Shown here one piece after another: positions 3,191-62,751 of a stretch of DNA of 64,000 nt. Numbering within the stretch: position 1 is the first letter of the stretch; each line of letters opens with the position of its first letter. The position numbers were made by a program, and so were the translations under genes. Location: positions 128,001-192,000 of IMG/VR virus record IMGVR_UViG_3300045988_180880, one strand, 5' to 3'. Source of the DNA: a virus. The notes under the pieces were generated by a model. It saw only the letters and a program-made list of their open reading frames with translations, made no database searches and had not been told where the DNA came from.

Positions 3191-4786
3191 ATGAAGAAAA
3201 ATTCTTGGAGATTAACAAGTGATTTGATAGCTTATTTTCCGTGTGACTTATCAGTTTCAGCAGGGAAGCGTGTTTTTTTAGCCTCTCCTGAAAAAAAGTC
3301 TTATAAAGCGGCAGTACAAAAGAATATCGAATCTGCTTTTGATGAAGTGATTATTGAATCTAATTCATTTAAATTAAAAGTATCTAATGATCTTAGTGTT
3401 TATGTAAAGTGTGATGAATTTCCTGATCCAGAACAATATTACTTAGTTTGTAATATGTATCGGACAGCTTTTGGAGTTCCTATGATTGGCAATATAATTA
3501 CTCAGGTTAAGAGTGATAAAGCTAATTTTGGAGACACAGTATTTGAAGCAGTATTTTCAGAAGATTCTCAAGAAAGTGTTTATTTTATGACACCTGAAAT
3601 GGCGGAATATAAAAGTGCTTTCGAAGAGATGAAGCGTAGAATGAATTGTACTTTAAATAAAAAAGTAAAGAAGTGGATTCCTGGTGGAAGATATGATACA
3701 TTAACAAATACGTATTATTATCTTGGAGAATTTAAGAGTAGAAAAAAGAACGAGTTAAATTCTGATTTTCTTGGAGATTCTTCAATGGTTCCAGCGTATC
3801 TATATGTTTCTGAACTTGGAGATGAGAAAAAAATCTCTGACATTCTAAAAACCAGAAAAATTGGTTCTGGACCGGAAGATATTCAGATTATGTACTCTCT
3901 TCCAAGCGCTGTAGATTCTGGAAATGTTTTGGAGAATGATATAACTTGTCTGAAAGATTATCAAAAGTATATCTTTGATAATTCAATGAAGGAATATACA
4001 ATTACTTCAGATTATGGATTTTCTAGTTATTCAAATCCTAAATATATTCTTGATATTCTTTCATTGAAATCAAGTGAATCAGATTCTTATGCAGATCTTA
4101 TTCCTGAATCTGTTTCTGAAATGATTAAGAATATGTTACATGAAGTTGTATTATGTTCTTGGGATTTGAATAAGAATAGAGAAGACATTTATATTGGTGA
4201 AGGAAATAATAATGATAAGAATGCAGAAAACTTAGTAAGGAGATTTTATCAAGATTTTAAAGATGGAAATGCAATGAGAAATTTGTATTATAGAAAACTC
4301 TTTATAGATCTTGGAATAAATATAAATGAAATAGCAGTAGAGGTAGTAAGTCAAGGTAATCCAGAAAGTTTAATACTATCTGGAATTGAGAATTATGTAT
4401 CTTTAGGAAGTATTTATTTTAAAAATCACTTTACAGATGCTTCCAGAAAGATTAGTAGACAAAGAATTAAATCAACAAATTATACTCTAGAGGTAGTTAA
4501 ATTATCTGATTTATTCTCTGCTACACCTAATTTATTATTGGATATTAAAGATTTGATAGAAAACGCTAGAAATAATTTTGGATTAGGTGTAAGAACTTTT
4601 TATGATACTAATACCGGTACTAAAAAATCTCCGAAAATATATACAACAATTGAAGTAGATATCTTAGACTTGATTAAGTACTATGGAGGTATTAAAAATA
4701 TTCCAGAAGTTATTGTAAATGAAATTATATCAAGTAAATTTTGGAATCTTCAAGTGTTAATTGATAAAGAAGGAGTATTAGAGTGA
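3191..4786 (+). CDS. hypothetical protein
   Basis: 531-aa ORF; its stop is 1 nt from the infA-like start. Confidence 0.7.
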
Positions 4787-8906: not shown

Positions 8907-9436
8907 AAGGTGATATCTTAGTTAGAGTTTCTTATACTGACAATAATGAAGAATATTGGGTATCTAAATTTTTAGAAATCAAGAATCTTCCAGTTTATAA
9001 TTTAGCTCTTGTCGATAAAGAATTAATTTCTGAGAAAAATTTCAAGGATGAGCTGGAACTAAGAAATATTGACGATTATCTGAAGGAAAAGTATAAGGAT
9101 TGTCTAAAAACAGAATCTGTATATTTTCTAATTGATCCTGGAACAAAATTTCTGAAAAAGCGCACATCTGATAAAGGCTTGTGCTTATTCTATGAAGTTA
9201 AATTTGATTCTGAAATAAATTTGAGAGATCTTGACAATACTAGGATAATATCAGAAAATATTAGAATTTCTAAGAATAAACTCAAAGATTTTACAACGGA
9301 TTTAATGTTTGAGCTTGCGGGAGAGGCTGGTTTATTTTATGATAAGGATTATTCTCCAAGTTTATGCACTAAATTATGTTATTTTAATATTCTTAATATA
9401 TTTAGATGCTTAGAAGAAACTCTGGATCTAGTATAA
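8861..9436 (+). CDS. hypothetical protein
   Basis: 191-aa ORF; start overlaps the upstream ORF. Confidence 0.6.
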   Translation: MDREEWIRNYGSKGLKGDILVRVSYTDNNEEYWVSKFLEIKNLPVYNLALVDKELISEKNFKDELELRNIDDYLKEKYKDCLKTESVYFLIDPGTKFLKKRTSDKGLCLFYEVKFDSEINLRDLDNTRIISENIRISKNKLKDFTTDLMFELAGEAGLFYDKDYSPSLCTKLCYFNILNIFRCLEETLDLV

Positions 9437-11743: not shown

Positions 11744-11759
11744 AGGAAGAATAAAAAAA

Positions 11760-11801
11760 AGATAGGTCTTGACCAATTAAAAGTCAAGTTAAATCCTATC
11801 T
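11760..11801. terminator. conserved nested-hairpin bidirectional terminator (family copy 1)
   Basis: agatagg-tcttgac-caattaaaa-gtcaag-ttaaat-cctatct flanked by A-run and T-run; lies between convergent genes ending at 11743 (+) and 11814 (-). Confidence 0.7.
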
Positions 11802-11813
11802 TTTTATTTTTTT

Positions 11814-13976
11814 TTATTCGCCGATAATATCAAGTATTTTCACATAATTCTTTGATATATCTTCAAATAATATTTTTTCTTTTACTTCTATATCTGGATC
11901 ATCCGGTAATATTTCTACAACTTCAGCACCTCTAGATTCATAATGTTGCTTAATGATATCATAAGATGAGTATTTTTCTTGTTTAGAGAAAAAGTTAACT
12001 ATTGCTTTCTGTAAGGAATAATTATCTTTATTATTAACTGGAAGTCCGGAAGTCTCACAATCTAAGAGAATCATTTCTCTATTTTCGATATCAATCATCA
12101 TTGCTGCTATCGAATCAGTCTTAGATGTAACGGGAACTGTTAATTCAACCTTTTGCGGATGCCAAGTTTTATCACCTTCCTGTAATTTTTCTCTAGTACA
12201 ATACCCCAACCATACAGGAAGAGTATCCATTCCTCGACCTTTATAATTGCAAACATCCATCACCACATATTTATATCCATTCTTTTTGCACTTATCTAGA
12301 TCAACGTCTACATACTCTGCACAATCTCCTGGACGGTTTAATACATCACCAGAATGAACAGCAACATTAGAATTAAGTGAAGTATTCCATCCTATATTGC
12401 TAATATCATCATTAGACTTATATAAGAATGCATGAAGATCTAAGTCTTCATCTCTATCTTTCTGAATCCAATGAACAAAAAACCTAACAATATTTCCAGA
12501 GATTTTATATCTTGTTCCTTTGGGGATAGATACATTTTGATTTCTCATACCCTTCGGAATAGGTATTCTCTTAATTTCTGGATCGATATATACAATCTCG
12601 TTTACTAAATCTTTCTCAGTAATTCTAGAATCTATGTTGAGAAATATTTTTCGAATTATATTATCTTTTATAGTTTCTAAGAATCCAGGGTTAATTGGTT
12701 TTAATCCATCTAGTATATATAAACCTTTTCCAGGAATATTTACCACTCTAGGAGTACTTTCTGATTGATCTCTTATATCGTAGTAGCTAAGAATTTCTAA
12801 GAGTGTTTTATTTTTCATCCCTGAAGTATTTATAAAGATATCCATTATATCAGATTCTTTACCTTCTTCAAGAGCTCTTCTTAAGAGAGAATCAAATTTT
12901 CTAATAAATTCCCCTGGATGAGTAGAAATAAATTTAGCTATTTCTAGAATATCTTTACCAGTATCATACATATTCTGTACTTGAGAATTAAATGTACGAT
13001 ATTCTTTTGATAAACCCTTACTCTTAAGTTTTACAAAGAAATCAGCACACTCAGGATAATTTACTACATATTCCTTCGGATGTACACGTTCTGATAGTAA
13101 TATCCAATGTCCATAGAAAAGTTTTGCATCTCGTATACAGTTTTCTACTCCTTTAGCCTCAATTATTTTTTCTATTCTTCCACAAATTTCTCTACGTTTT
13201 GATCTAGGAAGAGTATCTAATTTTCTCCATTCAGAATTATCAGTTTTTTTATTAGACCAAGAGCTAACTTGTATTTTCTTTGGAACATGTGGAAGACTTG
13301 GATCAGCTCCCATTAAGTACAAACTATATCTCAGAACATCATTAATCTCGGCAATTTTATATTCCGGCCGATGTTTAGCTACTATACACATTGTTTCTTT
13401 AAATGGTATACGTTCTGGGATGCTAAGTTCTGGATAATTCTCTAAGAACCATGCCAACTCTTCCCTAGTTTCTCCTGTTAGTGAATTTCCGGCCGACATC
13501 ATTTGCCGAGGAATATCCATAAATTCAGAAGGAGTCATAATCTTAAGCTGTCGATCTGGCTCTTCATCAATTATTTCCTTCTCTTCTTTAGTTGTCCAAG
13601 GATTATCTCTTAGAAATCCTTCAAGATCACCAGAATAAACTCTTTTTTGATCTAACCACAATTCCGATTTATCCTTAGAAATTACTTGTTCTGGAAATCC
13701 TGGATACAAAGGTTTAAACTTTTCCCCAGAATGATACAATTCGTGGATGTATGGAAGTAGATTTGTATGGAGATTTTCCATATCACTAATCGTCATCCTA
13801 CATATTACTTCGGGAGAAAGAAAATATCTATATCTCTTTAATTCTTGAAGAAGTGAGATTAATACTCTCTTACTCTTTTCCTCCATGTTTCTAGGATCTA
13901 CTAACTCCTTGCTCTCTACTAATACGCATCCTCTATGAAATGCAATAATTTCCTTGTTTAATTTCATTTCTGCCAT
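11814..13976 (-). CDS. large hypothetical protein with C-terminal TerD-like segment
   Basis: 720-aa ORF. DLDLHAFLYKSNDDISNIGWNT..NVAVHSGDVLNRPGDCAEYVDVDL resembles the TerD pattern DlD.s..l......v.f.n.....i.HsGDn..G....E.i.vdL. The rest is unrecognised. Contains two CGGCCG sites. Confidence 0.6.
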   Translation of the reverse strand: MAEMKLNKEIIAFHRGCVLVESKELVDPRNMEEKSKRVLISLLQELKRYRYFLSPEVICRMTISDMENLHTNLLPYIHELYHSGEKFKPLYPGFPEQVISKDKSELWLDQKRVYSGDLEGFLRDNPWTTKEEKEIIDEEPDRQLKIMTPSEFMDIPRQMMSAGNSLTGETREELAWFLENYPELSIPERIPFKETMCIVAKHRPEYKIAEINDVLRYSLYLMGADPSLPHVPKKIQVSSWSNKKTDNSEWRKLDTLPRSKRREICGRIEKIIEAKGVENCIRDAKLFYGHWILLSERVHPKEYVVNYPECADFFVKLKSKGLSKEYRTFNSQVQNMYDTGKDILEIAKFISTHPGEFIRKFDSLLRRALEEGKESDIMDIFINTSGMKNKTLLEILSYYDIRDQSESTPRVVNIPGKGLYILDGLKPINPGFLETIKDNIIRKIFLNIDSRITEKDLVNEIVYIDPEIKRIPIPKGMRNQNVSIPKGTRYKISGNIVRFFVHWIQKDRDEDLDLHAFLYKSNDDISNIGWNTSLNSNVAVHSGDVLNRPGDCAEYVDVDLDKCKKNGYKYVVMDVCNYKGRGMDTLPVWLGYCTREKLQEGDKTWHPQKVELTVPVTSKTDSIAAMMIDIENREMILLDCETSGLPVNNKDNYSLQKAIVNFFSKQEKYSSYDIIKQHYESRGAEVVEILPDDPDIEVKEKILFEDISKNYVKILDIIGE

Positions 13977-13995
13977 ATTTTTTTTGGTTTATAAA

Positions 13996-14307
13996 TTAAA
14001 TTTTCATCCACTTTTTTGCTCTCTCGAATTGTTTTATGAGATCATCTATCCAAGTACTAGCCGTACAATCTTTCTCAACTAATATCCATGAACTTGGAAT
14101 GTCTGCTGAGTGATTCATAATAATAGAAAAACTAGTATCTTTTCTATCTTTCCCATCACCATCTAAGAAAAGTATTACCCCAAAAACACTCCCAAAGAAA
14201 TATATCCTTGGAAGATGAGGTTGTTTTGATAGGTCCAGTTTATCATAATGATTTTTCCATGATCTATCTTTCAAATCATTTTTAATTAATTCATTTATTT
14301 CATCCAT
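13996..14307 (-). CDS. hypothetical protein
   Basis: 103-aa ORF in the minus block. Confidence 0.6.
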   Translation of the reverse strand: MDEINELIKNDLKDRSWKNHYDKLDLSKQPHLPRIYFFGSVFGVILFLDGDGKDRKDTSFSIIMNHSADIPSSWILVEKDCTASTWIDDLIKQFERAKKWMKI

Positions 14308-14333
14308 TTTTCTATTTGTTTATTTTTCTACAC

Positions 14334-14738
14334 TTATAAGAGTTTCTCGCCTTCTACAGTTATGGTCCTATGTTTCTTTTGTAGTTCGTCAAGTAATTTT
14401 CTTTTTAGTGTTCCAGGGAGAGGAATTTGTGGAAACAGCAACGTCTCACTTCTATGTTTCCAAAGCCACTCATCTATCTCTTCGAAGGATTGCTCAAAGA
14501 CTTCAAAAACTGGTTGCTCATCATAAAACCATTCATCTAAGAATTCAACTTTAAAATCATATAGTCTAAGGTGAAGTCTAAGTTCGTCTAATTCTGAACC
14601 CTCTCGTGTAGATATTATTTCTCCAAGAGGATTATGAAGACGATATTGATTTTTTCGTTTTTCTAAGTCTCCGGTATATCCAATTTTTACAACCTTCCTT
14701 ATTCCTTTCCATGCGCCAGATCCAAATAAATATAACAT
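14334..14738 (-). CDS. GIY-YIG superfamily / T5orf172-like putative homing endonuclease
   Basis: VVKIGYTGDLEKRKNQYRLHNP matches the KiG.T....R...y core of the T5orf172/GIY-YIG-like family. Confidence 0.5.
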   Translation of the reverse strand: MLYLFGSGAWKGIRKVVKIGYTGDLEKRKNQYRLHNPLGEIISTREGSELDELRLHLRLYDFKVEFLDEWFYDEQPVFEVFEQSFEEIDEWLWKHRSETLLFPQIPLPGTLKRKLLDELQKKHRTITVEGEKLL

Positions 14739-14746
14739 TTTATAAT

Positions 14747-15013
14747 TTACTCCTTTTTCTTCTTACCTTTAATAATTCCAGCAACCCTATCTCCTGCCAC
14801 ATCCTCTATCTTATTCCGCTGCTTCTTAAGGTTATTTTGATATCCATAGGTTGCACCAAGAATAGCTCCTGCAATCGGAATGGCAGCTGCTGCAATTTCA
14901 TCATGGGATAAATATGTAAAATCATCAAGTGACCTATGTGTACCATAGGTAGTCAATGTTTCAGCACTTGCCATTCTTGCTTTCTTTGCAGCTTCTTCTA
15001 CTGTCTGTTTCAT
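14747..15013 (-). CDS. small protein with glycine-zipper-like hydrophobic segment
   Basis: AAAAIPIAGAILGATYG segment; 88-aa ORF coupled to the downstream gene. Confidence 0.55.
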   Translation of the reverse strand: MKQTVEEAAKKARMASAETLTTYGTHRSLDDFTYLSHDEIAAAAIPIAGAILGATYGYQNNLKKQRNKIEDVAGDRVAGIIKGKKKKE

Positions 15014-15348
15014 AACTTATTCGGATTTGTTTTACAATAATTTTCATTCTCTTTCAGTTTTAAAATATTATTCAAATGTTCGTCTGAAAGCAGATGCTTA
15101 TTACTAAAATTACCCAACATTATACGAGGTTCAATATTTTCATCTCTCATAAATTTCTGTAGTTCGTATATATGAAAAAGCAAACCTTCACAATCTACTG
15201 CGTAGTATTCAACGCCATCGTCATTGTTGGCAGATACTTCATAACCAATCCATCCACCGTTACCCATATAAGTATTTATCTCAATATTACGGCAAAAGCC
15301 ATAACTGATAAGTAATAGCCTTAGTACATCTTTCCCACTCATACACAT
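15010..15348 (-). CDS. hypothetical protein
   Basis: 112-aa ORF; its start overlaps the stop of the small upstream ORF. Confidence 0.55.
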   Translation of the reverse strand: MCMSGKDVLRLLLISYGFCRNIEINTYMGNGGWIGYEVSANNDDGVEYYAVDCEGLLFHIYELQKFMRDENIEPRIMLGNFSNKHLLSDEHLNNILKLKENENYCKTNPNKL

Positions 15349-15515
15349 TTCGATTTATCAATTTGTCCTATACGCTGTCTTTCAAATCCCTCTATCTGTG
15401 CGTCAGTAAGGTTGTTCAGCCATTCATCAGCATACTTTCTGTACTTGGCATGATTGCATTTATAAAACTCCAATCTAAGCCATTCAATAGTTATGTCCTT
15501 TTGTTCCATAATCAT
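15339..15515 (-). CDS. small hypothetical protein (58 aa)
   Basis: Hand-translated: MIMEQKDITIEWLRLEFYKCNHAKYRKYADEWLNNLTDAQIEGFERQRIGQIDKSKCV. ATGA overlap upstream and stop overlap downstream. Below the ORF-track size cutoff. Confidence 0.45.
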   Translation of the reverse strand: MIMEQKDITIEWLRLEFYKCNHAKYRKYADEWLNNLTDAQIEGFERQRIGQIDKSKCV

Positions 15516-15703
15516 CTGGTTATAGTAGTTCTTTTATTAAATAAAACCATAAGTATCAAGGCAAAGGCGACTTTCAATAATCGCTTTTTACCAACAATTA
15601 CAATGTTGTCTTTGGTTATTCCACTATCAGTTGTTATGCTGTACCATTTACTATATGGTGGTAAGCACCTATAAATATGAATTTTAGAAAATGTATATTT
15701 CAT
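15512..15703 (-). CDS. small hypothetical membrane protein
   Basis: 63-aa ORF preceded by AGGAGG; C-terminal hydrophobic stretch VAFALILMVLF; chained by ATGA overlap. Confidence 0.45.
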   Translation of the reverse strand: MKYTFSKIHIYRCLPPYSKWYSITTDSGITKDNIVIVGKKRLLKVAFALILMVLFNKRTTITR

Positions 15704-15921: not shown

Positions 15922-17964
15922 TTAACACACCTCCTTTCTACTTAATAGTTCATAACCCTTTGTTTGTTTCTTTTTTCCAGTAGTCTCATCTAAAATAGAT
16001 ATATAAATTAATTTAACCTCAAAATAACTTTCTAAATCTTTTGCTTTAGGGGTTTTATCATAATTAATACTAGAATACAAATATCCTAACTTATCTTTTA
16101 TTCCAGATAATATTAATTTATCCCCTACTTTAAATTCATTATAGATAGTAGCTTCTAATAATTCATCTGAAAAAGTAATTATTCCTAAAGCTTTTTTTAT
16201 TTTAGTAATATGATAACCCATACCCTTTAATCTTTGAGGACCCAATGTAATATAGTAAGATTTAACCTCATCTGAATCAGATATCTGCCCTAATACTATA
16301 TCAATAGCGTCTTCAGACAAACCATATTCACAAATAAGTTTTAATTTATCATACATAGTAGTTAAACTAGTATATACCTTTAAAAAATTTGATACCTCCT
16401 GATTCACTATATCATCTCTGGTTAACATATTATGTACCGTACTAAACACTGTAAATCTATCTTTATAGTCTATCTGTTGTATTTTAAAAGCTCTAATCTC
16501 ATTTACTAGTACTAGATTATTAGGAACTGGTTTAAGAATAATATTTCCTTCAGAAGTATGAATCTTATTTACTGCTACATAATCATCCTTATAATTAGAA
16601 GCTTTGGCATCTTTCTGATACTTCTTAGCTAATGCAAATTTATCTTTTATAGAAATAGCAATATTATAAGTTCTTAATAAACTTTCTGTCATTTCTTGTT
16701 TAGTTTTTATTATTTTCTGAAAATCTTCAGCCTTCATTTCTCTATAATTAGCAGTAGATCTATAATAAAAAGTGGCTGAATTTTTCCAAGGATTATCAAA
16801 TAATCTTTGCCTTCCTAATATCTGGGGCAAATCTTCTGATATATCTACAGCCAAGGAATCTATATTACTATCACTGAATATAAATGATCTAGCACATAAA
16901 CTATAAAAGTCAGCTCCAAGATATACAGTTCTTGTACAAAAAGTAAACATTTTAGGTTTTACTCCCTTTAACGGTACTTCACCTATCTTAAAAGACTTAC
17001 CTAACCTCCTTTGAATTTTCTTTAAATTATCTTCTGTGTATGAACATAAGATATTACATTGCTCTGAGGTAAGATTATTCTTTTTAATGATAGATGTAAT
17101 ATGATTAACACTATTAACATAGAATACAGCCTCATCTGATACTACTCTAGTAGGAATTCCATTTCTAAGAACTACTATACTTTCAAACTCTCCTGAAAGA
17201 TACTTTTGAATTACTTCAGAAGCTTTTTCACCAACAGATCTCATTACAAAGACATCTAAATCTGGTTGAATAACTCTACTAGGATCCGCAGATCCCCAAT
17301 CTAATTCATAATATGGGAGATCCTTAAATTCATCTAACATTTCTAAATATTCATCCATCATAGGAGTTGCACTAACAAAGTATGCTGTTGGAGATTGTTT
17401 AAGATATTCTAGAAATTTTAATTCAGTATCACTCTTAAATCTAGAATCATGAAGAATACTTTGAAATTCATCTACTATTGTATAAAATGTATAAAATCTA
17501 TCTAATTTCTCTAGGATATCTTTTACTATTCTATATGAATCATAAGTAACAAGGATTTTACAAGGTAATCCATTAATACTCCTAGATATACAGTATTCCT
17601 CTATTTCTCTATATAATCTTTTATAGATATCTGAATTATCTAATGATTCTGAATCAATTGATAAGTCTGCTAAAATATTTTTATCAATCTTAGATAAGTC
17701 TTTATCAATATTAGACTCCTTATCCATTTCATTTACGACCAGATAAACATCAAATTCATGTTGATCCTTTTTATTCTTAAGTAGCATCTTTCTGGGACTA
17801 CATAAAATAATATTTTCATTACTCCTAATACAATATTCAGTAAAACCACATCCAGGTAATTGTTTATTAATAATACATTTACTTGGAAATTTATTAAAAT
17901 TAAATTCATTCCATTCTGAAATAAATCTAATTCCAGATGGTACTATTATCTTCTCTCTAATCAT
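15922..17964 (-). CDS. superfamily 2 (DExD/H-like) helicase
   Basis: QLPGCGFTEY (degenerate motif I position), TIVDEFQSI (motif II DEFQ), YFVSATP (motif III SAT) and QILGRQR (motif VI). Confidence 0.7.
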   Translation of the reverse strand: MIREKIIVPSGIRFISEWNEFNFNKFPSKCIINKQLPGCGFTEYCIRSNENIILCSPRKMLLKNKKDQHEFDVYLVVNEMDKESNIDKDLSKIDKNILADLSIDSESLDNSDIYKRLYREIEEYCISRSINGLPCKILVTYDSYRIVKDILEKLDRFYTFYTIVDEFQSILHDSRFKSDTELKFLEYLKQSPTAYFVSATPMMDEYLEMLDEFKDLPYYELDWGSADPSRVIQPDLDVFVMRSVGEKASEVIQKYLSGEFESIVVLRNGIPTRVVSDEAVFYVNSVNHITSIIKKNNLTSEQCNILCSYTEDNLKKIQRRLGKSFKIGEVPLKGVKPKMFTFCTRTVYLGADFYSLCARSFIFSDSNIDSLAVDISEDLPQILGRQRLFDNPWKNSATFYYRSTANYREMKAEDFQKIIKTKQEMTESLLRTYNIAISIKDKFALAKKYQKDAKASNYKDDYVAVNKIHTSEGNIILKPVPNNLVLVNEIRAFKIQQIDYKDRFTVFSTVHNMLTRDDIVNQEVSNFLKVYTSLTTMYDKLKLICEYGLSEDAIDIVLGQISDSDEVKSYYITLGPQRLKGMGYHITKIKKALGIITFSDELLEATIYNEFKVGDKLILSGIKDKLGYLYSSINYDKTPKAKDLESYFEVKLIYISILDETTGKKKQTKGYELLSRKEVC

Positions 17965-18034
17965 ATTTAAATTATATTTTTATTGTTACAAAATAATATT
18001 TAAACTCAATACAGAGTTCAGTTAGTTAAAATTG

Positions 18035-18512
18035 AAGACTAAGGATACCCTTAACTTCATTAATTAGAATTTGAGGTTAATAGAAGAGCAAAATACAACT
18101 TTACTAATACATTTTCACCTACATGTAGTATATAAATTTAATTCGGATAGAAAAGTTGTAGTGGTTCTTCTATAAGAGCGAACATAGTGAGAGACTCACC
18201 TCCCGAAGGGAGGAGGTGATGTCGTCTCTTATAGGAGGTTCACGATAAATAGAAAATAATAGATTAATTATTATATATCTATTATATGGAAATGAACCTT
18301 AAAAGAGTACCGTCCACCCGCTCCCTGTAAGGGGAGCGAGGACTCTCACTAACGTTCGTACTTTTTAAGAACCATTAAATAATTATATTTTCTATTCAAT
18401 TCTAACTAATATTTATTTAATTCTTTTTTATTCTCTATATATCTTTTCAGTTTCTTGAAGGCCCGAATGAACATAGTGAATGAAGGATATAGATTCTGGT
18501 ATCCCTAGTCTT
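18035..18512 (-). ncRNA. large (~480 nt) highly structured non-coding element, class unknown
   Basis: No credible ORF. Nested long-range helices: 18035-18049/18498-18512, 18163-18169/18367-18373, 18179-18183/18354-18358, 18186-18193/18343-18350 and 18236-18242/18293-18299. GC hairpins at 18199-18213 and 18319-18338. In the outer helix the only non-Watson-Crick position is G.U in minus sense but A.C in plus sense, which sets the strand. Confidence 0.55.
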
Positions 18513-18538
18513 TGAAAAAATATTACAAAAAATATAAA

Positions 18539-18581
18539 AGATAGGTTTTGACTAATTTTAAAGTCAAATTAAATCCTATCT
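18539..18581. terminator. conserved nested-hairpin terminator (family copy 2)
   Basis: agatagg-ttttgac-taattttaaa-gtcaaa-ttaaat-cctatct; immediately 3' of the minus-strand gene ending at 18595. Confidence 0.6.
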
Positions 18582-18594
18582 TTTATATTTTTTA

Positions 18595-19443
18595 TTATAT
18601 GAAATTTAATCTTTTCTGATAAATATTAAATACAAGATTTGATACATTATCTAAATATAATTTCTCTAATGACATTTGTTTAAGTTTATTATATGGAGTA
18701 CCAGATATTTTATTAGAGAATTTATATAATTGTTTTAAATTTATAGTTAATGATCTTTTTAGAAAGAATTCATTAAGTCCAATAAAATTTATAATAATAT
18801 CTATAAATTCTAATACTTTTTTATTATCTCTTATAAAATTTCCAATAATTGTTTTTGAATAGTTTATTGGAATTTCTACCATAGGTAAATTATTAGTTCT
18901 AAAATAGTTTATTATATTATTAGTTATTTTATTAAACAAGTTTATATAAGGAATTGTGTGTTCATCATTACTTCCAAATTCATAATATCTATGAATAATT
19001 ATTCCATAAACACGCTCTACATAGATATCTCTTGCTTTATCATAGATTATTTTTGCTTTATGATATTTAGAATCTATTTCTACGGCTATTCCTAAATAAG
19101 GAAAGAAATAATCTAGTAAAAAGTATCTTGTATTTCTGATACTATCATCCAATCTAACAGAGAAAGAATTTAAAATATTATTCCATAAACTTGTATTCTC
19201 AATTATTATTGGAAATTCCTCAATATAATTATAATATCCTTTAATATTGTAATTATTATCAATAAGATTTTTAAAATTAATAGAATAACTACTCTTATCG
19301 TTTAAAATTGCTTTTTCACGATTAAATACTACATCTATTAATTTATTATTGATTTTTACTTTTCTTGGAACAAAATACATTCCTATATAAGCTGTATAAA
19401 ATTTATCTCTTATTACGTAATTTCTAATCAAATTTAAATCCAT
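18595..19443 (-). CDS. PD-(D/E)XK (DUF559/Vsr-like) homing-endonuclease-like protein, paralog 1
   Basis: YFLLDYFFPYLGIAVEIDSKYHKAKIIYDKARDIYVERVYGIIIHRY parallels the 25279 and 33619 proteins (LDFY.P...lAiE.D...H....D..rd..l...G..v.r). Free-standing with its own promoter. Confidence 0.55.
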   Translation of the reverse strand: MDLNLIRNYVIRDKFYTAYIGMYFVPRKVKINNKLIDVVFNREKAILNDKSSYSINFKNLIDNNYNIKGYYNYIEEFPIIIENTSLWNNILNSFSVRLDDSIRNTRYFLLDYFFPYLGIAVEIDSKYHKAKIIYDKARDIYVERVYGIIIHRYYEFGSNDEHTIPYINLFNKITNNIINYFRTNNLPMVEIPINYSKTIIGNFIRDNKKVLEFIDIIINFIGLNEFFLKRSLTINLKQLYKFSNKISGTPYNKLKQMSLEKLYLDNVSNLVFNIYQKRLNFI

Positions 19444-19679
19444 ATTACATATTTGTTATTTATGTCAAAAGGTTAAAAAAACAAAGTAGCAAGAGTCTCT
19501 CAACCTCCTACTACCTCTACCTAATATTGCCTTAAAGCCTTGTCCGAATACTCGACCCTTATCTTTATCGACTTCTTATCTGTTAACCATATACAACAAG
19601 GTAGCTACTTAGGATCTAGAATATTAGTAAGTAGCAATCTAATATTAATAAGATTCTGCAGTTAATCTTATATCCCTAT

Positions 19680-19690
19680 CATATATAAGA
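19680..19690 (-). promoter_or_regulatory. phage promoter motif (minus strand)
   Basis: Plus strand reads catatataaga, which is TCTTATATATG on minus. The extended upstream match aaccgtctgagaaactgggaaa is almost identical to 62303-62324. It precedes a 237-nt leader to ATG 19443. Confidence 0.55.
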
Positions 19691-19748
19691 ATTTCCCAGT
19701 TTCTCAGACGGTTAAAAATAAGTTTTTGCGTTTTCTATAGAGTAAAAA

Positions 19749-19759
19749 CCTTATATATG
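19749..19759 (+). promoter_or_regulatory. phage promoter motif
   Basis: ccttatatatg; divergent from the 19680 motif; ends 98 nt before ATG 19857. Confidence 0.55.
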
Positions 19760-47220: not shown

Positions 47221-47604
47221 ATGAAAGTAAGATTTTTATCTACAAAGTTTTATGTGAGCGAAAAAAGAAGAACAGTAACTTGTGTTATGACTGCAAAATT
47301 AGACGATAGAAAGTCTGGTCAAAACAATTTCCGATTTACATGGGAAGGGGAAGAGAGATTCTTAGAACCTTTCGAAGTTATAACAGTTGCCCGTTGTCAC
47401 AAAGATGATAAATTCGATGAGACAAAAGGAAGACGTATCGCTGAATCTAAAGCTAAACGTTTAGTTTATTCAGAAGGAATTCAACGAGGAAGAATGATAC
47501 TAAAAGCAGAAAATGCTTATCGGAAAGAGTTGGAAACATTTGTAGAAAATACAGTAAAGTATAAAGAAAAAGAAGTAGCTCATACATCTATTGTAATGGG
47601 ATAA
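47221..47604 (+). CDS. hypothetical protein
   Basis: 127-aa ORF with ARCHKDDKFDETKGRRIAESKAKR. I recognise the pattern from phage hypothetical proteins but cannot name a family. Confidence 0.65.
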   Translation: MKVRFLSTKFYVSEKRRTVTCVMTAKLDDRKSGQNNFRFTWEGEERFLEPFEVITVARCHKDDKFDETKGRRIAESKAKRLVYSEGIQRGRMILKAENAYRKELETFVENTVKYKEKEVAHTSIVMG

Positions 47605-47615
47605 AAAAGAAAATA

Positions 47616-47657
47616 AGAGAGGATTTAACTTGACTTTTAATTAGTCAAGACCTCTCT
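47616..47657. terminator. conserved nested-hairpin bidirectional terminator (family copy 3, inverted orientation)
   Basis: agagagg-atttaa-cttgac-ttttaatta-gtcaaga-cctctct between convergent genes ending at 47604 (+) and 47666 (-). Confidence 0.7.
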
Positions 47658-47665
47658 TATTATTT

Positions 47666-47926
47666 TTATAGTCCTTCAGCAACTGAATTAAGAATCGAAT
47701 CTAGGATCACCTTTTCAGTTGTTGTTTTTATTTTCTCCATTTTATATTCACCAGTACCTAAATAAATTATAGTATATTCGATAATATCTGAAGATTCTCT
47801 TTTCAGTTCAAATAAAACCATAGATGAATATACTAAAGTTATTTGATCAGGATAATCATTAGCAACGTACAAAGGATCTCCAAAAACATCTGATATTTCT
47901 TTAACTATATTCTTCAGATTTATCAT
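47666..47926 (-). CDS. hypothetical protein
   Basis: 86-aa ORF; first (most 3') gene of a long minus-strand operon with overlapping stops and starts. Confidence 0.6.
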   Translation of the reverse strand: MINLKNIVKEISDVFGDPLYVANDYPDQITLVYSSMVLFELKRESSDIIEYTIIYLGTGEYKMEKIKTTTEKVILDSILNSVAEGL

Positions 47927-61246: not shown

Positions 61247-61941
61247 TAAAAATAGGTTGTTTATCGGATATTCATGGTTATGTTTATGATTTACAAACAA
61301 AATGTTACCCAGAGATTGAACTTCTAATTATTGCTGGAGATCTGTGTCCCACTGATGAAGTTATGTATCAAGAAGAGTGGCTTGAATATAATTATCAGAA
61401 TATATTCATGAATAAGAAAATATTTCCGGATCTTCAAGAAATTATAATAGTTCCCGGAAATCATGACTACTGGATTGAGAGACACTATGATGACTTCCTC
61501 ACACTTAGAAAGATATTTGGATACTCTACTAAAGTTCTGGTTGATGAAGAGTATGAATATATTTCTGGAATTACTGGAGAATCAGTAAAGATATATGGAA
61601 ATCCTAGAACTTCTTTATGGTTACACGCTTTCCCACATAAACCTGGAAATATTGATATCTTAGAAATTCCAGGAGGAATAGATATTTTAGTAACTCATGA
61701 AGCCCCTAGAATATATCAACTTGAATGTATAAAACAATCTCAGAGGTGGTATGGAAAAGATGAACCTGGGAATCTAGCATTATCACAAAGAGTATTAGAG
61801 ATCAATCCAAGGTATCACGTGTTTGGTCACATACATTACCCGGAAAGAGGTGAAGTATCTGGAATAAAATTTATGAATGTATCTCAACAAACTAGAGAAA
61901 ATTATACTCCTAAGATACATATAATAGAATATACAGAATAA
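61243..61941 (+). CDS. calcineurin-like metallophosphoesterase
   Basis: IGCLSDIHGY (DxH), LLIIAGDL (GD), VPGNHD (GNH[DE]), VTHEAP and VFGHIH. Confidence 0.75.
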   Translation: MIKIGCLSDIHGYVYDLQTKCYPEIELLIIAGDLCPTDEVMYQEEWLEYNYQNIFMNKKIFPDLQEIIIVPGNHDYWIERHYDDFLTLRKIFGYSTKVLVDEEYEYISGITGESVKIYGNPRTSLWLHAFPHKPGNIDILEIPGGIDILVTHEAPRIYQLECIKQSQRWYGKDEPGNLALSQRVLEINPRYHVFGHIHYPERGEVSGIKFMNVSQQTRENYTPKIHIIEYTE

Positions 61942-61948
61942 AAAATAA

Positions 61949-61989
61949 AGAGAGGTCTTGACTAATTAAAAGTCAAGTTAAACCTCTCT
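61949..61989. terminator. conserved nested-hairpin bidirectional terminator (family copy 4)
   Basis: agagagg-tcttgac-taattaaaa-gtcaag-ttaaa-cctctct between convergent genes ending at 61941 (+) and 61999 (-). Confidence 0.7.
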
Positions 61990-61998
61990 TTTTATTTC

Positions 61999-62244
61999 TT
62001 AAAGATATTTTTCTAGAAATTCTTTTAGTTCTTCCTCTGTACTATTTACAAAGGAAAATATTTTTTGTTTGGGTACATATTTTCCTTTAACTTTTTCTAC
62101 ACAAAACACTACTAGGTTAGTTCCAAAAAGTTCTAGTTGATCCATTCCATCATATCCTCCAAAGAAACTTCCTTTTTTAGTTTCATACAGATCTATATCT
62201 GGATAATTCTTTTCAAAATAATTGTAAACTTCTTTCTGTGTCAT
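61999..62244 (-). CDS. hypothetical protein
   Basis: 81-aa ORF; promoter variant 26 nt upstream. Confidence 0.6.
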   Translation of the reverse strand: MTQKEVYNYFEKNYPDIDLYETKKGSFFGGYDGMDQLELFGTNLVVFCVEKVKGKYVPKQKIFSFVNSTEEELKEFLEKYL

Positions 62245-62324: not shown

Positions 62325-62335
62325 TCTTATAAATG
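62325..62335 (+). promoter_or_regulatory. phage promoter motif driving an ORF-less unit
   Basis: tcttataaatg, with the extended upstream accgtctgagaaaccgggaaaa nearly identical to the 19691-19712 reverse complement. No ORF longer than about 8 codons lies before the stem/T-run at 62627-62658. Confidence 0.55.
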
Positions 62336-62545
62336 TATTAAAAGACACAATAACAAAAAAAAGACATCATAGGCGTCTCAAGAAATGCGTAATGTATAGC
62401 TTGAGCTTGTGAAGAACTGAAAAATCATGTAAGGTTTAAATCTCACTAATCTCTTCAGAACTTCTACGTTTATGAGGTGCAAAATTAAACAACTTTAAAC
62501 GACACAACAACAAAATTAAAATTAAAATAATTAACTGAATCTATA

Positions 62546-62623
62546 GACAAGATAGTTTAGCGGGTCAAAACACTAAGATAATTGTTTATCTTAGAATCTC
62601 AGGTTAGAATCCTGATCAAGTTC
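62546..62623 (+). ncRNA. tRNA-like element (non-canonical; not confidently a functional tRNA)
   Basis: TA at positions 8-9; D-arm gttt-agcgggtca-aaac with A14, GG and A21; T-arm tcagg-ttagaat-cctga. However, the acceptor gacaaga/tcaagtt has 2 mismatches, the T-loop has A where C56 should be, and the anticodon arm is ctaagat-aattgttt-atcttag (7 bp/8 nt, or 8 bp/6 nt). No encoded CCA. Confidence 0.35.
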
Positions 62624-62708
62624 TCTAGATTTATAATAGTTAATTATTTTATTTTTTCCAACTGGATTCTGTATTAAAAATATTTTCCATCTCAAAAAAT
62701 GCTAAAAG

Positions 62709-62719
62709 CCTTATATATG
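62709..62719 (+). promoter_or_regulatory. phage promoter motif
   Basis: ccttatatatg; ends 33 nt before ATG 62752. Confidence 0.55.
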
Positions 62720-62751
62720 AGATAATAAAAGTAAATAAATACTCCTTAAGC

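Follow-up and report, generated by a model that had tools for sequence, protein, structure and literature searches.

What occupies the 630 nt between two complete open reading frames (ORFs) on the same strand of a large phage genome, where inverted repeats are dense and credible coding sequence is lacking? The gap lies in a 64,000-nt stretch, here called the window (positions 128,001 to 192,000 of virus record IMGVR_UViG_3300045988_180880), between a 680-aa ORF with motifs of superfamily 2 (SF2) helicases and a 282-aa ORF (18595-19443), both on the minus strand. A sequence-only reading of the window had proposed that most of the gap (18035-18512) encodes a single ornate RNA of about 480 nt. 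Comparison with relatives shows that the gap contains a genuine non-coding element, rich in hairpins and conserved, which is found before each copy of a rapidly evolving helicase-like gene; it is probably not one closed 480-nt RNA, however. We favour, tentatively and at rather less than an even chance, an upstream structured non-coding transcript or long leader, the 5' end of which would pair with the 5' end of the helicase mRNA and provide control specific to each cassette of element and gene. A regulatory leader of the helicase was among the candidates of the sequence-only reading; the linkage and conservation described below speak for it, while leader function itself would be a further step.

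The absence of a credible ORF from the gap is borne out. The only ORF within it has 34 aa and a TTG start, and 70 homologous variants share no common ORF, the longest ATG ORF having a median of 23 aa. A conserved leader peptide or a decayed gene within the element was considered and dismissed, no ORF being kept across these variants. A repeat finder recovered all helices and repeats that had been listed from the sequence. The 15-nt closing inverted repeat (18035-18049 and 18498-18512, here P1) is 93% complementary; only one position departs from Watson-Crick pairing, and on the minus strand it is a G.U pair. Also present are the inverted repeats ggttctt/aagaacc (within tagtggttctt/aagaaccatta) and agtgagag/ctctcact, two GC hairpins, the aggttca/tgaacct helix, and an exact 11-nt direct repeat (GAACATAGTGA) at 18180 and 18469. 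On the minus strand the 478-nt stretch has a minimum free energy (MFE) of -146.7 kcal/mol (z -9.36), and on the plus strand of -141.6 kcal/mol (z -7.56); for both strands, each of 100 dinucleotide shuffles gave a weaker fold.

At least 70 distinct homologous versions of the element were found. By blastn the gap is recovered at 70-99% identity 5' of about 32 helicase-like copies, and its 3' ~90 nt 5' of nearly all of them. A search anchored on the P1 arms gave 52 distinct versions in two size classes, short (277-345 nt) and long (449-526 nt). The end of the element is always 64-106 nt from the start codon, and both arms are present in all 69 loci from the protein search that have enough upstream sequence. 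Linkage was also approached from the other side, with a helicase-independent DNA pattern derived from the central domain of the element. This pattern identified 31 viral and 29 metagenomic stretches, and the helicase-like ORF follows on the same strand at 269-315 nt in each of the 50 stretches with at least ~400 nt downstream. One locus (L117) that seemed to carry the element without the gene was dismissed, as the gene is there but frameshifted. In the window and in the pattern searches, the element was not found away from the helicase-like gene. The genes upstream of it vary from locus to locus. All paralogs, the most distant with 63% protein identity, keep the order of the scaffold, its motifs and the positions of its helices.

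Where strains can be compared at a single locus, the genes on its flanks are 97-100% identical, yet the alleles of helicase and element are only 70-84% identical and include short forms. Segments of the element are moreover shuffled among variants in a mosaic pattern. Because divergent alleles occupy a single locus and segments are shuffled, the cassette can be described as hypervariable and recombining. The same picture is seen when window 11814-15703 is compared with L002-L009, L030, L031, L045 and L061 (L numbers denote related loci), the downstream genes being 97-100% identical and the cassette 70-84%; the cassette has the appearance of a hot spot of recombination or diversification. The type of P1 arm follows the helicase clade. 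No target-site duplication was seen flanking the arms, and copies at unrelated loci, as expected of a miniature inverted-repeat transposable element (MITE), were not encountered, the element always lying 5' of the same gene family.

The partner gene is itself unusual. SF2 motifs II (VDEFQ), III (SAT) and VI (QILGRQR, i.e. QxxGRxR) of the 680-aa protein are invariant in the paralogs, and so is motif I, LPGCGFTE, which is without the usual lysine. In this deviant motif (NKQLPGCGFTE) Phe stands at the usual Walker-A Lys position, and K34 just upstream is invariant in the window and in L001-L076. Searches of the 680-aa ORF against Pfam, PHROGs, NCBIfam and PDB sequences, and of a 15-sequence profile against PDB, gave nothing significant, the top family match being a weak DEAD hit (E=0.17). 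An AlphaFold2 model from 17 sequences (81-88% identical to the query) had a mean pLDDT of 42.8 and was unusable. The protein has at least 4,587 homologues at E<=1e-5, a lower bound since only the 8,000 candidates sharing most words were scored, on contigs of up to ~405 kb; one of them is labelled by one source 'ATP-dependent RNA helicase [Bacteriophage sp.]'. The DNA matches stem from human-gut metagenomes. Independent assemblies of 290-375 kb carry 4-7 copies, 63-83% identical to that of the window, and one SPAdes contig of 371,686 bp has three long-form elements; the 64-kb window contains one copy of the cassette. Some helicase-like genes are followed, after about 550 nt, by a separate ORF with 51-61% identity to their C-terminal ~165 aa, and an apparent 1-kb insertion or intron in some helicase matches was dismissed as being this downstream ORF. 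Distant homologues (23-24% identity) occur in Psychrobacter phage D'Alembert and Acinetobacter phage Phab24. They too are preceded by AT-rich, repeat-bearing non-coding gaps, of 1,348 nt in D'Alembert (L137, 1078-2425), where the gap adjoins a long terminal repeat, and of 931 nt in Phab24 (L138, 1453-2383).

On the minus strand, i.e. in helicase sense, all variants have the same order of parts: 5' flank, 5' arm, variable hairpin(s), repeat motif, spacer, central domain, a helix here called Hx, a UUUUGC block, 3' arm, and a hairpin (Table 1). The 5' flank has the conserved pattern TTGTAAC-N-T-rich. In the 5' domain, hairpins swap among variants (e.g., AUGC-UUAC-GCAU and GCUAU-UUAC-AUAGC) and are followed by the motif RAYTGAAUAAGAUAUAUAGG and by 0-2 extra RAYTGAAWR repeats in an A-rich spacer. 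The density of RAYTGAAWR is 4.1 per kb in the sense orientation, compared with 0.17 antisense and 0.48 in the background; these repeats could be protein sites on RNA or DNA. The block before the 3' arm reads UUUUGC...CUCUAAUUAAUGAAG, and the hairpin after it AACUGRAYUCUGUAUU, with covariation in the stem (GAACUC/GAGUU, GGAUUC/GAAUC, ACUGGAUU/AAUCCAGU). A second copy of this 5' untranslated region (5'UTR) motif, AACTGGATTCTGTATTA, lies at window 62660. It belongs to a non-coding stretch (62325-62720) comprising a promoter-like box at 62325, about 200 nt, and a tRNA-like gene at 62546-62623 (39.8 bits with Rfam; not called by ARAGORN), which has AACTGAATCTATAG before it and a T-run and the motif copy after it.

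Table 1. Features of the element, its partner gene and associated repeats; positions are those of the window unless a related locus is named.
Feature	Position	Strand	Remark
SF2-helicase-like ORF, 680 aa	15922-17964	minus	deviant motif I; motifs LPGCGFTE, VDEFQ, SAT, QILGRQR
5'UTR hairpin AACUGAACUCUGUAUUGAGUU	18003-18023	minus	loop UGUAU(U); stem covaries
P1 3' arm GGUAUCCUUAGUCUU	18035-18049	minus	7-8 nt after -7-like box
Promoter-like block P_hel	18058-18093	minus	TTTTGC at 18088-18093; -7-like box TCTAATTAATG at 18058-18068
Helix Hx	18094-18160	minus	5' arm 18148-18160 UACAACUUUUCUA; 3' arm 18094-18106 UAGUAAAGUUGUA; 41-nt AU-rich loop
Central domain	18162-18374	minus	pseudo-symmetric four-way junction
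Junction stem	UGGUU 18370-18374 / AACCA 18162-18166	minus	
Module B, P5	18226-18238 / 18167-18178	minus	
Module B, GC hairpin	18197-18218	minus	
P4	18293-18297 / 18238-18242	minus	encloses AT-rich spacer
Module A, P2	18358-18369 / 18298-18310	minus	
Module A, GUCC/GGAC	18340-18343 / 18312-18315	minus	
Module A, GC hairpin	18319-18338	minus	
5' domain	18380-18497	minus	variable hairpins; motif AACUGAAAAGAUAUAUAG (18435-18452); RAYTGAAWR (18393-18401); A-rich spacer
P1 5' arm AAGACUAGGGAUACC	18498-18512	minus	present in all variants; three sequence types
5' flank TTGTAATATTTTTTC	18515-18529	minus	conserved in all paralogs; putative upstream promoter P_up
-7-like box TATTTTTT of 5' flank	18515-18522	minus	weaker T-rich box
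Recurrent hairpin element	18520-18600, 11757-11812, 47602-47667, 61940-62001		also in L002, L003, L006, L007
C-terminal-like extra ORF	L004 6560-7048; L015 6568-7035; L038 6571-7056		

The most conserved part of the 3' strand is most simply read as the promoter of the helicase gene. Most ORFs of the window are preceded, in gene orientation, by a motif AAAn-CCTTAT(A/T)(A/T)ATG, usually 14-35 nt and sometimes 100-250 nt from the start, which is probably the main -7/-10 promoter element of the phage. It occurs, for example, on the plus strand at 241, 6223, 9500, 19749, 47185, 60055 and 62709 and on the minus strand at 19690, 35287, 58126 and 60012, and loosely resembles the TAnnTTTG box of Bacteroidota. 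A weight matrix built from 23 of its sites reaches at least 8 bits at 32 places in 128 kb and at least 14 bits at about 26. Within the element only one match reaches 4 bits (background 0.39 per kb per strand), namely the end of the UUUUGC...AAUGAAG block, with a score of 4-11 bits; this box has a fixed position, 24-25 nt before the 3' end of the element, in 69 of 70 variants. The whole block, P_hel, resembles the promoter region at 19712-19759. As the 3' arm follows the box at a distance of 7-8 nt, it probably lies at the very 5' end of the helicase mRNA, with transcription predicted to start there. Thus, the dense set of helices reported from the sequence is conserved, non-coding and tied to the helicase-like gene, but a promoter-like box within it argues against a single closed RNA of ~480 nt. 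At the other end of the element, 13 of 31 distinct 5' flanks contain a box (TATTTATG or TATTTTTG) whose end falls exactly on nucleotide 1 of the 5' arm, which makes P_up a possible upstream promoter. Many loci also possess a divergent promoter box, a strong one, at the constant position -38/-39 relative to this arm. Hx is 26 nt 5' of the internal -7 box, a spacing close to that of ordinary intergenic terminator hairpins of this phage, which lie about 22 nt 5' of the box.

Short forms have just one GC hairpin as their central domain. In long forms, an AT-rich spacer separates two hairpin modules of ~80 nt that are inverted relative to each other. The modules and the stems UGGUU/AACCA and GUUCA/UGAAC make up a four-way junction without unpaired junction nucleotides, which in our reading arose, in the window, by inverted duplication of an ~80-nt hairpin module. 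The modules fold independently in 18 and 15 variants, respectively. In an alignment of 23 sequences, 93.4% of cells are paired in the four-way fold and 14 pairs (74 cells) are altered on both sides. Covariation in the central domain is 0.178, compared with 0.067 in shuffles (0 of 500 as high) and at most 0.064 with partners slid. The compensatory changes expected of a conserved structured RNA were found both here and in Hx. The junction stems and the outer half of P2 are invariant, so that pairing there is neither supported nor refuted.

Of the helices proposed from the single sequence, the local stems covary and the long-range helix does not. The latter, of ~25 bp, has no double changes; its covariation is 0.041, shuffles giving 0.039, and 5-10 of 23 variants disrupt its pairs. 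Its loop motif (the agtgagag region) is replaced in type 2 of module A and missing in type 3, the supposed partner being unchanged. The switch that had been built on the 11-nt repeat fares no better: the competing local stems covary instead, and the copy in the 5' domain varies without consistent compensation. Because of this lack of double changes, the broken pairs and the uncompensated variation of loop motif and repeat, long-range helix and switch are best regarded as by-products of the inverted duplication and not as conserved structure.

Hx provides a different type of evidence. It is part of the RNAalifold consensus of 48 sequences, and its 3' arm abuts the UUUUGC block. At the same place, 30 distinct arm pairs are found (e.g., ACAACUUU/AAAGUUGU, AUGCAUAUUU/AAAUAUGCAU, GAGAACUU/AAGUUCUC and GAUACAUU/AAUGUAUC), with 267 Watson-Crick, 9 G.U, 6 A.C and 10 other pairs in total. 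Cognate arms score 8.1 and non-cognate arms 6.2, a real yet modest margin in AT-rich sequence. A U-run after the central domain that might have been a terminator tail was dismissed, since it is the 5' arm of Hx and not part of a canonical terminator. The P1 arms are of three types, GACUAGGGAUACC/GGUAUCCUUAGUC, GACUAAGGA-ACCC(UUUAU)/(AUAAA)GGGUAUCCCUAGUC and GACAAAGGAGCUUCCC/GGGAGACUCCUAUGUC, among which complementarity is kept (e.g., GACU/AGUC in place of GACA/UGUC); the three types would represent only a few evolutionary events. At position 3 of P1, roughly every second variant has G.U. A third, downstream copy of the 5' arm, a possible competitor for the 3' arm, is present in about a quarter of variants (L004-7, L009, L022, L064, L071, L059 and L075), the window not among them.

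As to whether these complementarities act in RNA or in DNA, the observations point both ways. Mutual distance favours RNA: the P1 arms are ~250-500 nt apart (448 nt in the window) and those of Hx 41 nt apart in the window, too distant for cruciform extrusion, and therefore pairing needs a single strand, most simply RNA. In addition, what is kept in Hx is complementarity and not a sequence that a protein might read, and the order and orientation of motifs are fixed relative to the gene. A substantial set of observations weighs against a strand-specific RNA and against our preferred reading. The strand signature of structured RNA, in which G.U is tolerated and A.C avoided, is absent: symmetric folds computed without G.U contain 10 G.U and 16 A.C among 1x1 mismatches, and symmetric scoring of Hx shows no strand bias (9 G.U, 6 A.C). 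Of 70 variants, only 40 have the lower MFE on the sense strand. The frequent non-canonical pair at alignment columns 2:249 (junction stem) and 170:241 (P5) is A.C in the sense strand, equivalent to G.U in the antisense. Position 9 of P1 is A-U, G.U or A.C, never G-C. The G.U pair from which a minus-sense RNA had been deduced is thus confirmed in the window, but the deduction is uncertain, as many relatives have A.C there and the totals are balanced. Hairpin loops are reverse-complemented among close relatives (e.g., UUCG against CGAA, and L023 against L025 in the central hairpin), and in L057 (~3540-3770) the whole ~210-bp central domain is inverted with respect to all other long forms, in both cases without evident cost. 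Such inversions fit DNA palindromes better than a strand-specific RNA, and taken with the balanced mismatches they appear to be signs of DNA palindromes or of hairpins working on both strands; the two cases in themselves point to palindrome-mediated DNA inversion. Hairpins of single-stranded DNA would be expected to yield the same pattern of covariation, which in perfect palindromes cannot alone distinguish RNA from DNA structure. Finally, a good -7 box is absent from more than half of the 5' flanks, which have weaker T-rich boxes, and no canonical intrinsic terminator was detected in the element.

We infer transcription of the minus strand, with the following transcript ends and outcome, as the best tentative account of the locus. 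The interval would be the control cassette of multi-copy, fast-diversifying SF2-helicase-like genes in human-gut jumbo phages of ~400 kb, and would have three parts. An upstream structured module (18094-18512) would probably be transcribed from the -7-like box abutting the 5' arm, and would contain the 5' hairpins, the RAYTGAAWR repeats in their A-rich spacer, the variable central domain and Hx, the last in the place taken by a terminator hairpin in other intergenic regions of the phage. The gene's own promoter-like block would come next, followed by a 5'UTR that would start with the 3' arm and bear the conserved hairpin. The upstream transcript could then pair through its 5'-terminal 15-27 nt with the initial ~20 nt of the helicase mRNA. 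On read-through transcripts this would happen in cis and produce the 'closing helix'; otherwise it would happen in trans. The outcome might be cassette-specific post-transcriptional control, e.g. through duplex-dependent processing, stability or translation.

The chief competitor, possible but on balance doubtful, is that the element works as DNA, the arms being sites for a cassette-specific protein beside the flanking promoters. Arms, RAYTGAAWR repeats, A/T-rich spacer and palindromes would then constitute a transcription-control or replication-origin-like region served by the adjacent SF2 protein. This would account for helices that are near-perfect Watson-Crick inverted repeats with no excess of G.U over A.C, for the inverted loops and the inverted domain of L057, for 1-3 same-orientation direct repeats in an A/T-rich stretch, for the position of the 3' arm just 3' of the internal box, for the divergent promoter in many loci, and for arm types that follow the helicase clade. 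Further strength comes from the way the palindromes behave and from the AT-rich gaps, 0.9-1.35 kb long, 5' of the D'Alembert and Phab24 homologues. But the 30 versions of Hx offer a protein complementarity and no sequence to read, cruciform extrusion is not possible for arms 41-450 nt apart, an origin would not usually be present about 7 times in a genome with a separate paralog at each copy, and the protein matches no known initiator or DNA-binding family. A further rival is a free-standing ornate RNA of a new class, one minus-strand molecule of ~480 nt (280-530 nt in relatives) closed by P1 and acting in trans or as a ribonucleoprotein with its cognate SF2 protein. The very strong folding z-score, a conserved outer scaffold around a variable central domain, complementarity of P1 across three arm types, strict co-occurrence with the SF2-like gene and the lack of a match among Rfam families are what such an RNA would show. 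We nevertheless hold it to be unlikely, because a promoter-like block lies between Hx and the 3' arm in all but one of the variants and looks like a promoter and mRNA start, no terminator follows the 3' arm, A.C mismatches are frequent in P1, and neither mismatch nor MFE counts favour one strand. A more specific version, in which the element is the RNA half of a new phage RNA-protein pair, is a speculation of low probability: the 280-530-nt RNA would be bound or remodelled by its cognate deviant SF2 ATPase, and up to ~7 diversified pairs per ~400-kb genome, in hypervariable cassettes, might serve, e.g., as decoys, sensors or guides in phage-host or phage-phage conflict.

Mosaic shuffling, cassettes only 70-84% identical beside identical flanking genes, a central domain that varies from one hairpin to two inverted modules, and the inversions might all arise without any specific function, from terminator and promoter sequence inflated by inverted duplication, palindrome-generating replication errors or MITE-like insertion and homogenised by recombination. 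This is quite improbable given that the scaffold persists at 63% protein identity, that Hx is repeatedly replaced in place by new complementary sequences, that the module was never met away from the helicase-like gene, and that target-site duplications were not seen. The remaining candidate, a degenerate or free-standing group I-like ribozyme linked to an endonuclease-like gene, is contradicted and has practically no chance of being correct. It had been proposed from a resemblance of GTGAGAGACTCAC to the group I R element, but the GTGAGAG segment concerned is part of an internal loop; type 2 of module A has another sequence in its place, and type 3 lacks it. Searches at E<=10 in window 17900-18700 and at E<=1 in the homologous region of six relatives yielded no match to Intron_gpI, GIR1 (RF00028 and RF01807) or other ribozymes, and the element sits between two complete ORFs, with no flanking exons that would restore an ORF or RNA. 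The description of the 282-aa ORF as homing-endonuclease-like is not upheld either, its sole match being PvuRts1I-like_N at 19.8 bits (cut-off 27), with none in PHROG and NCBIfam searches, and among relatives this gene is not tied to the element.

Searches for known families agree with the suggestion of a class not yet described. In a scan with Rfam 15 at gathering thresholds nothing was found in the element region of the window. At E<=10 there was nothing meaningful between 17900 and 18700 (top match SraC_RyeA, E=2.7, 17 bits with a gathering score of 37), and at E<=1 the homologous region of six relatives had no match. The models for ROOL, GOLLD, HEARO, OLE and raiA were all without a match in the window and in these relatives. 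A blastn search of the gap against 50,697 phage records gave no match. The 3' arm, scanned in 185,579 reference genomes, had 63 matches, none with a helicase or the downstream motif, and all of them are judged to be due to chance. No description of the element was found in the literature searched.

Among characterized systems, the proposed pairing would follow a logic similar to that of c4 RNA in phages P1 and P7. There, a small non-coding RNA of ~77 nt is encoded just upstream of its icd-ant target and on the same strand. It is processed out of the transcript that it shares with the target, and its loops pair with the downstream leader; c4 and target sequences change together between related phages, providing specificity. 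In contrast, the upstream module here has 230-440 nt, the complementarity runs from 5' end to 5' end, an internal promoter splits the two parts, and there are ~7 systems per genome. ROOL, GOLLD, OLE, HEARO and raiA are similar in size class (280-530 nt here), abundance of helices and phage association, but they have many covarying long-range pairs and a clear strand, whereas the present element has invariant junction stems, balanced strands and an internal promoter-like box. Likeness to a riboswitch or attenuator leader is limited to variants in which the 3' arm can pair with a downstream copy of the 5' arm. Most variants and the window lack this third copy, so conserved competition between pairings is not seen; there is no terminator, and the element has no conserved core resembling a ligand pocket, its central domain being freely exchangeable. 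PeSL cassettes of T4-like phages consist of promoter and stem-loop repeats that mediate gene shuffling, and here as well repeated blocks of promoter and hairpin flank hypervariable genes in a mosaic, recombinant arrangement; yet the element greatly exceeds them in size, its multi-helix scaffold is fixed, and it accompanies a single gene family. Herpesvirus UL9 serves oriS and oriL, and iteron origins adjoin their initiator gene. Inverted sites around an A/T-rich region, a large palindrome, direct repeats, nearby promoters and an adjacent SF2 gene are reminiscent of both, but up to ~7 copies of the element occur on a contig, similarity of its protein to UL9, Rep or any other initiator family was not detected, and its helix sequences are variable and thus unreadable for a binding protein.

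Regulation in large uncultured gut phages is almost unexplored. Based on these comparisons, we regard the element as a new conserved structured non-coding family tied to diversified SF2-like genes of gut jumbo phages. The comparison defines this family, with more than 70 variants and as many as ~7 copies on a contig, together with its anatomy and a probable phage promoter motif, and links it to a highly diversified, unannotated family of SF2-like proteins. If transcribed, the element would be among the larger phage regulatory RNAs and would have an unusual 5'-end-to-5'-end pairing layout; if acting as DNA, it would mark multiple origin-like or operator regions in a jumbo phage.

Several other features were recorded in and around the window. 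A hairpin element of ~60-75 nt (AAAAGATAGG..TTGACT..AGTCAA..CCTATCTTTT), flanked by A- and T-runs, occurs at four gene ends with 81-90% identity and looks like a repeated bidirectional terminator. The 720-aa ORF at 11814-13976 (minus strand) matches NCBIfam NF041916 (MXAN_6230/SCO0854 RING-domain family) at E=1.3e-44, far under the 600-bit cut-off of that family, and also phrog_33734, of unknown function. Locus L008 has a sub-threshold match to the Pistol ribozyme at 9108-9166 on the plus strand (28.8 bits with a gathering score of 34.5, E=0.27). The 282-aa ORF upstream of the element also has a long leader of ~235 nt (19444-19690, minus strand), which contains several inverted repeats and lies 3' of the promoter-like box at 19690; long structured leaders may be common in this phage.

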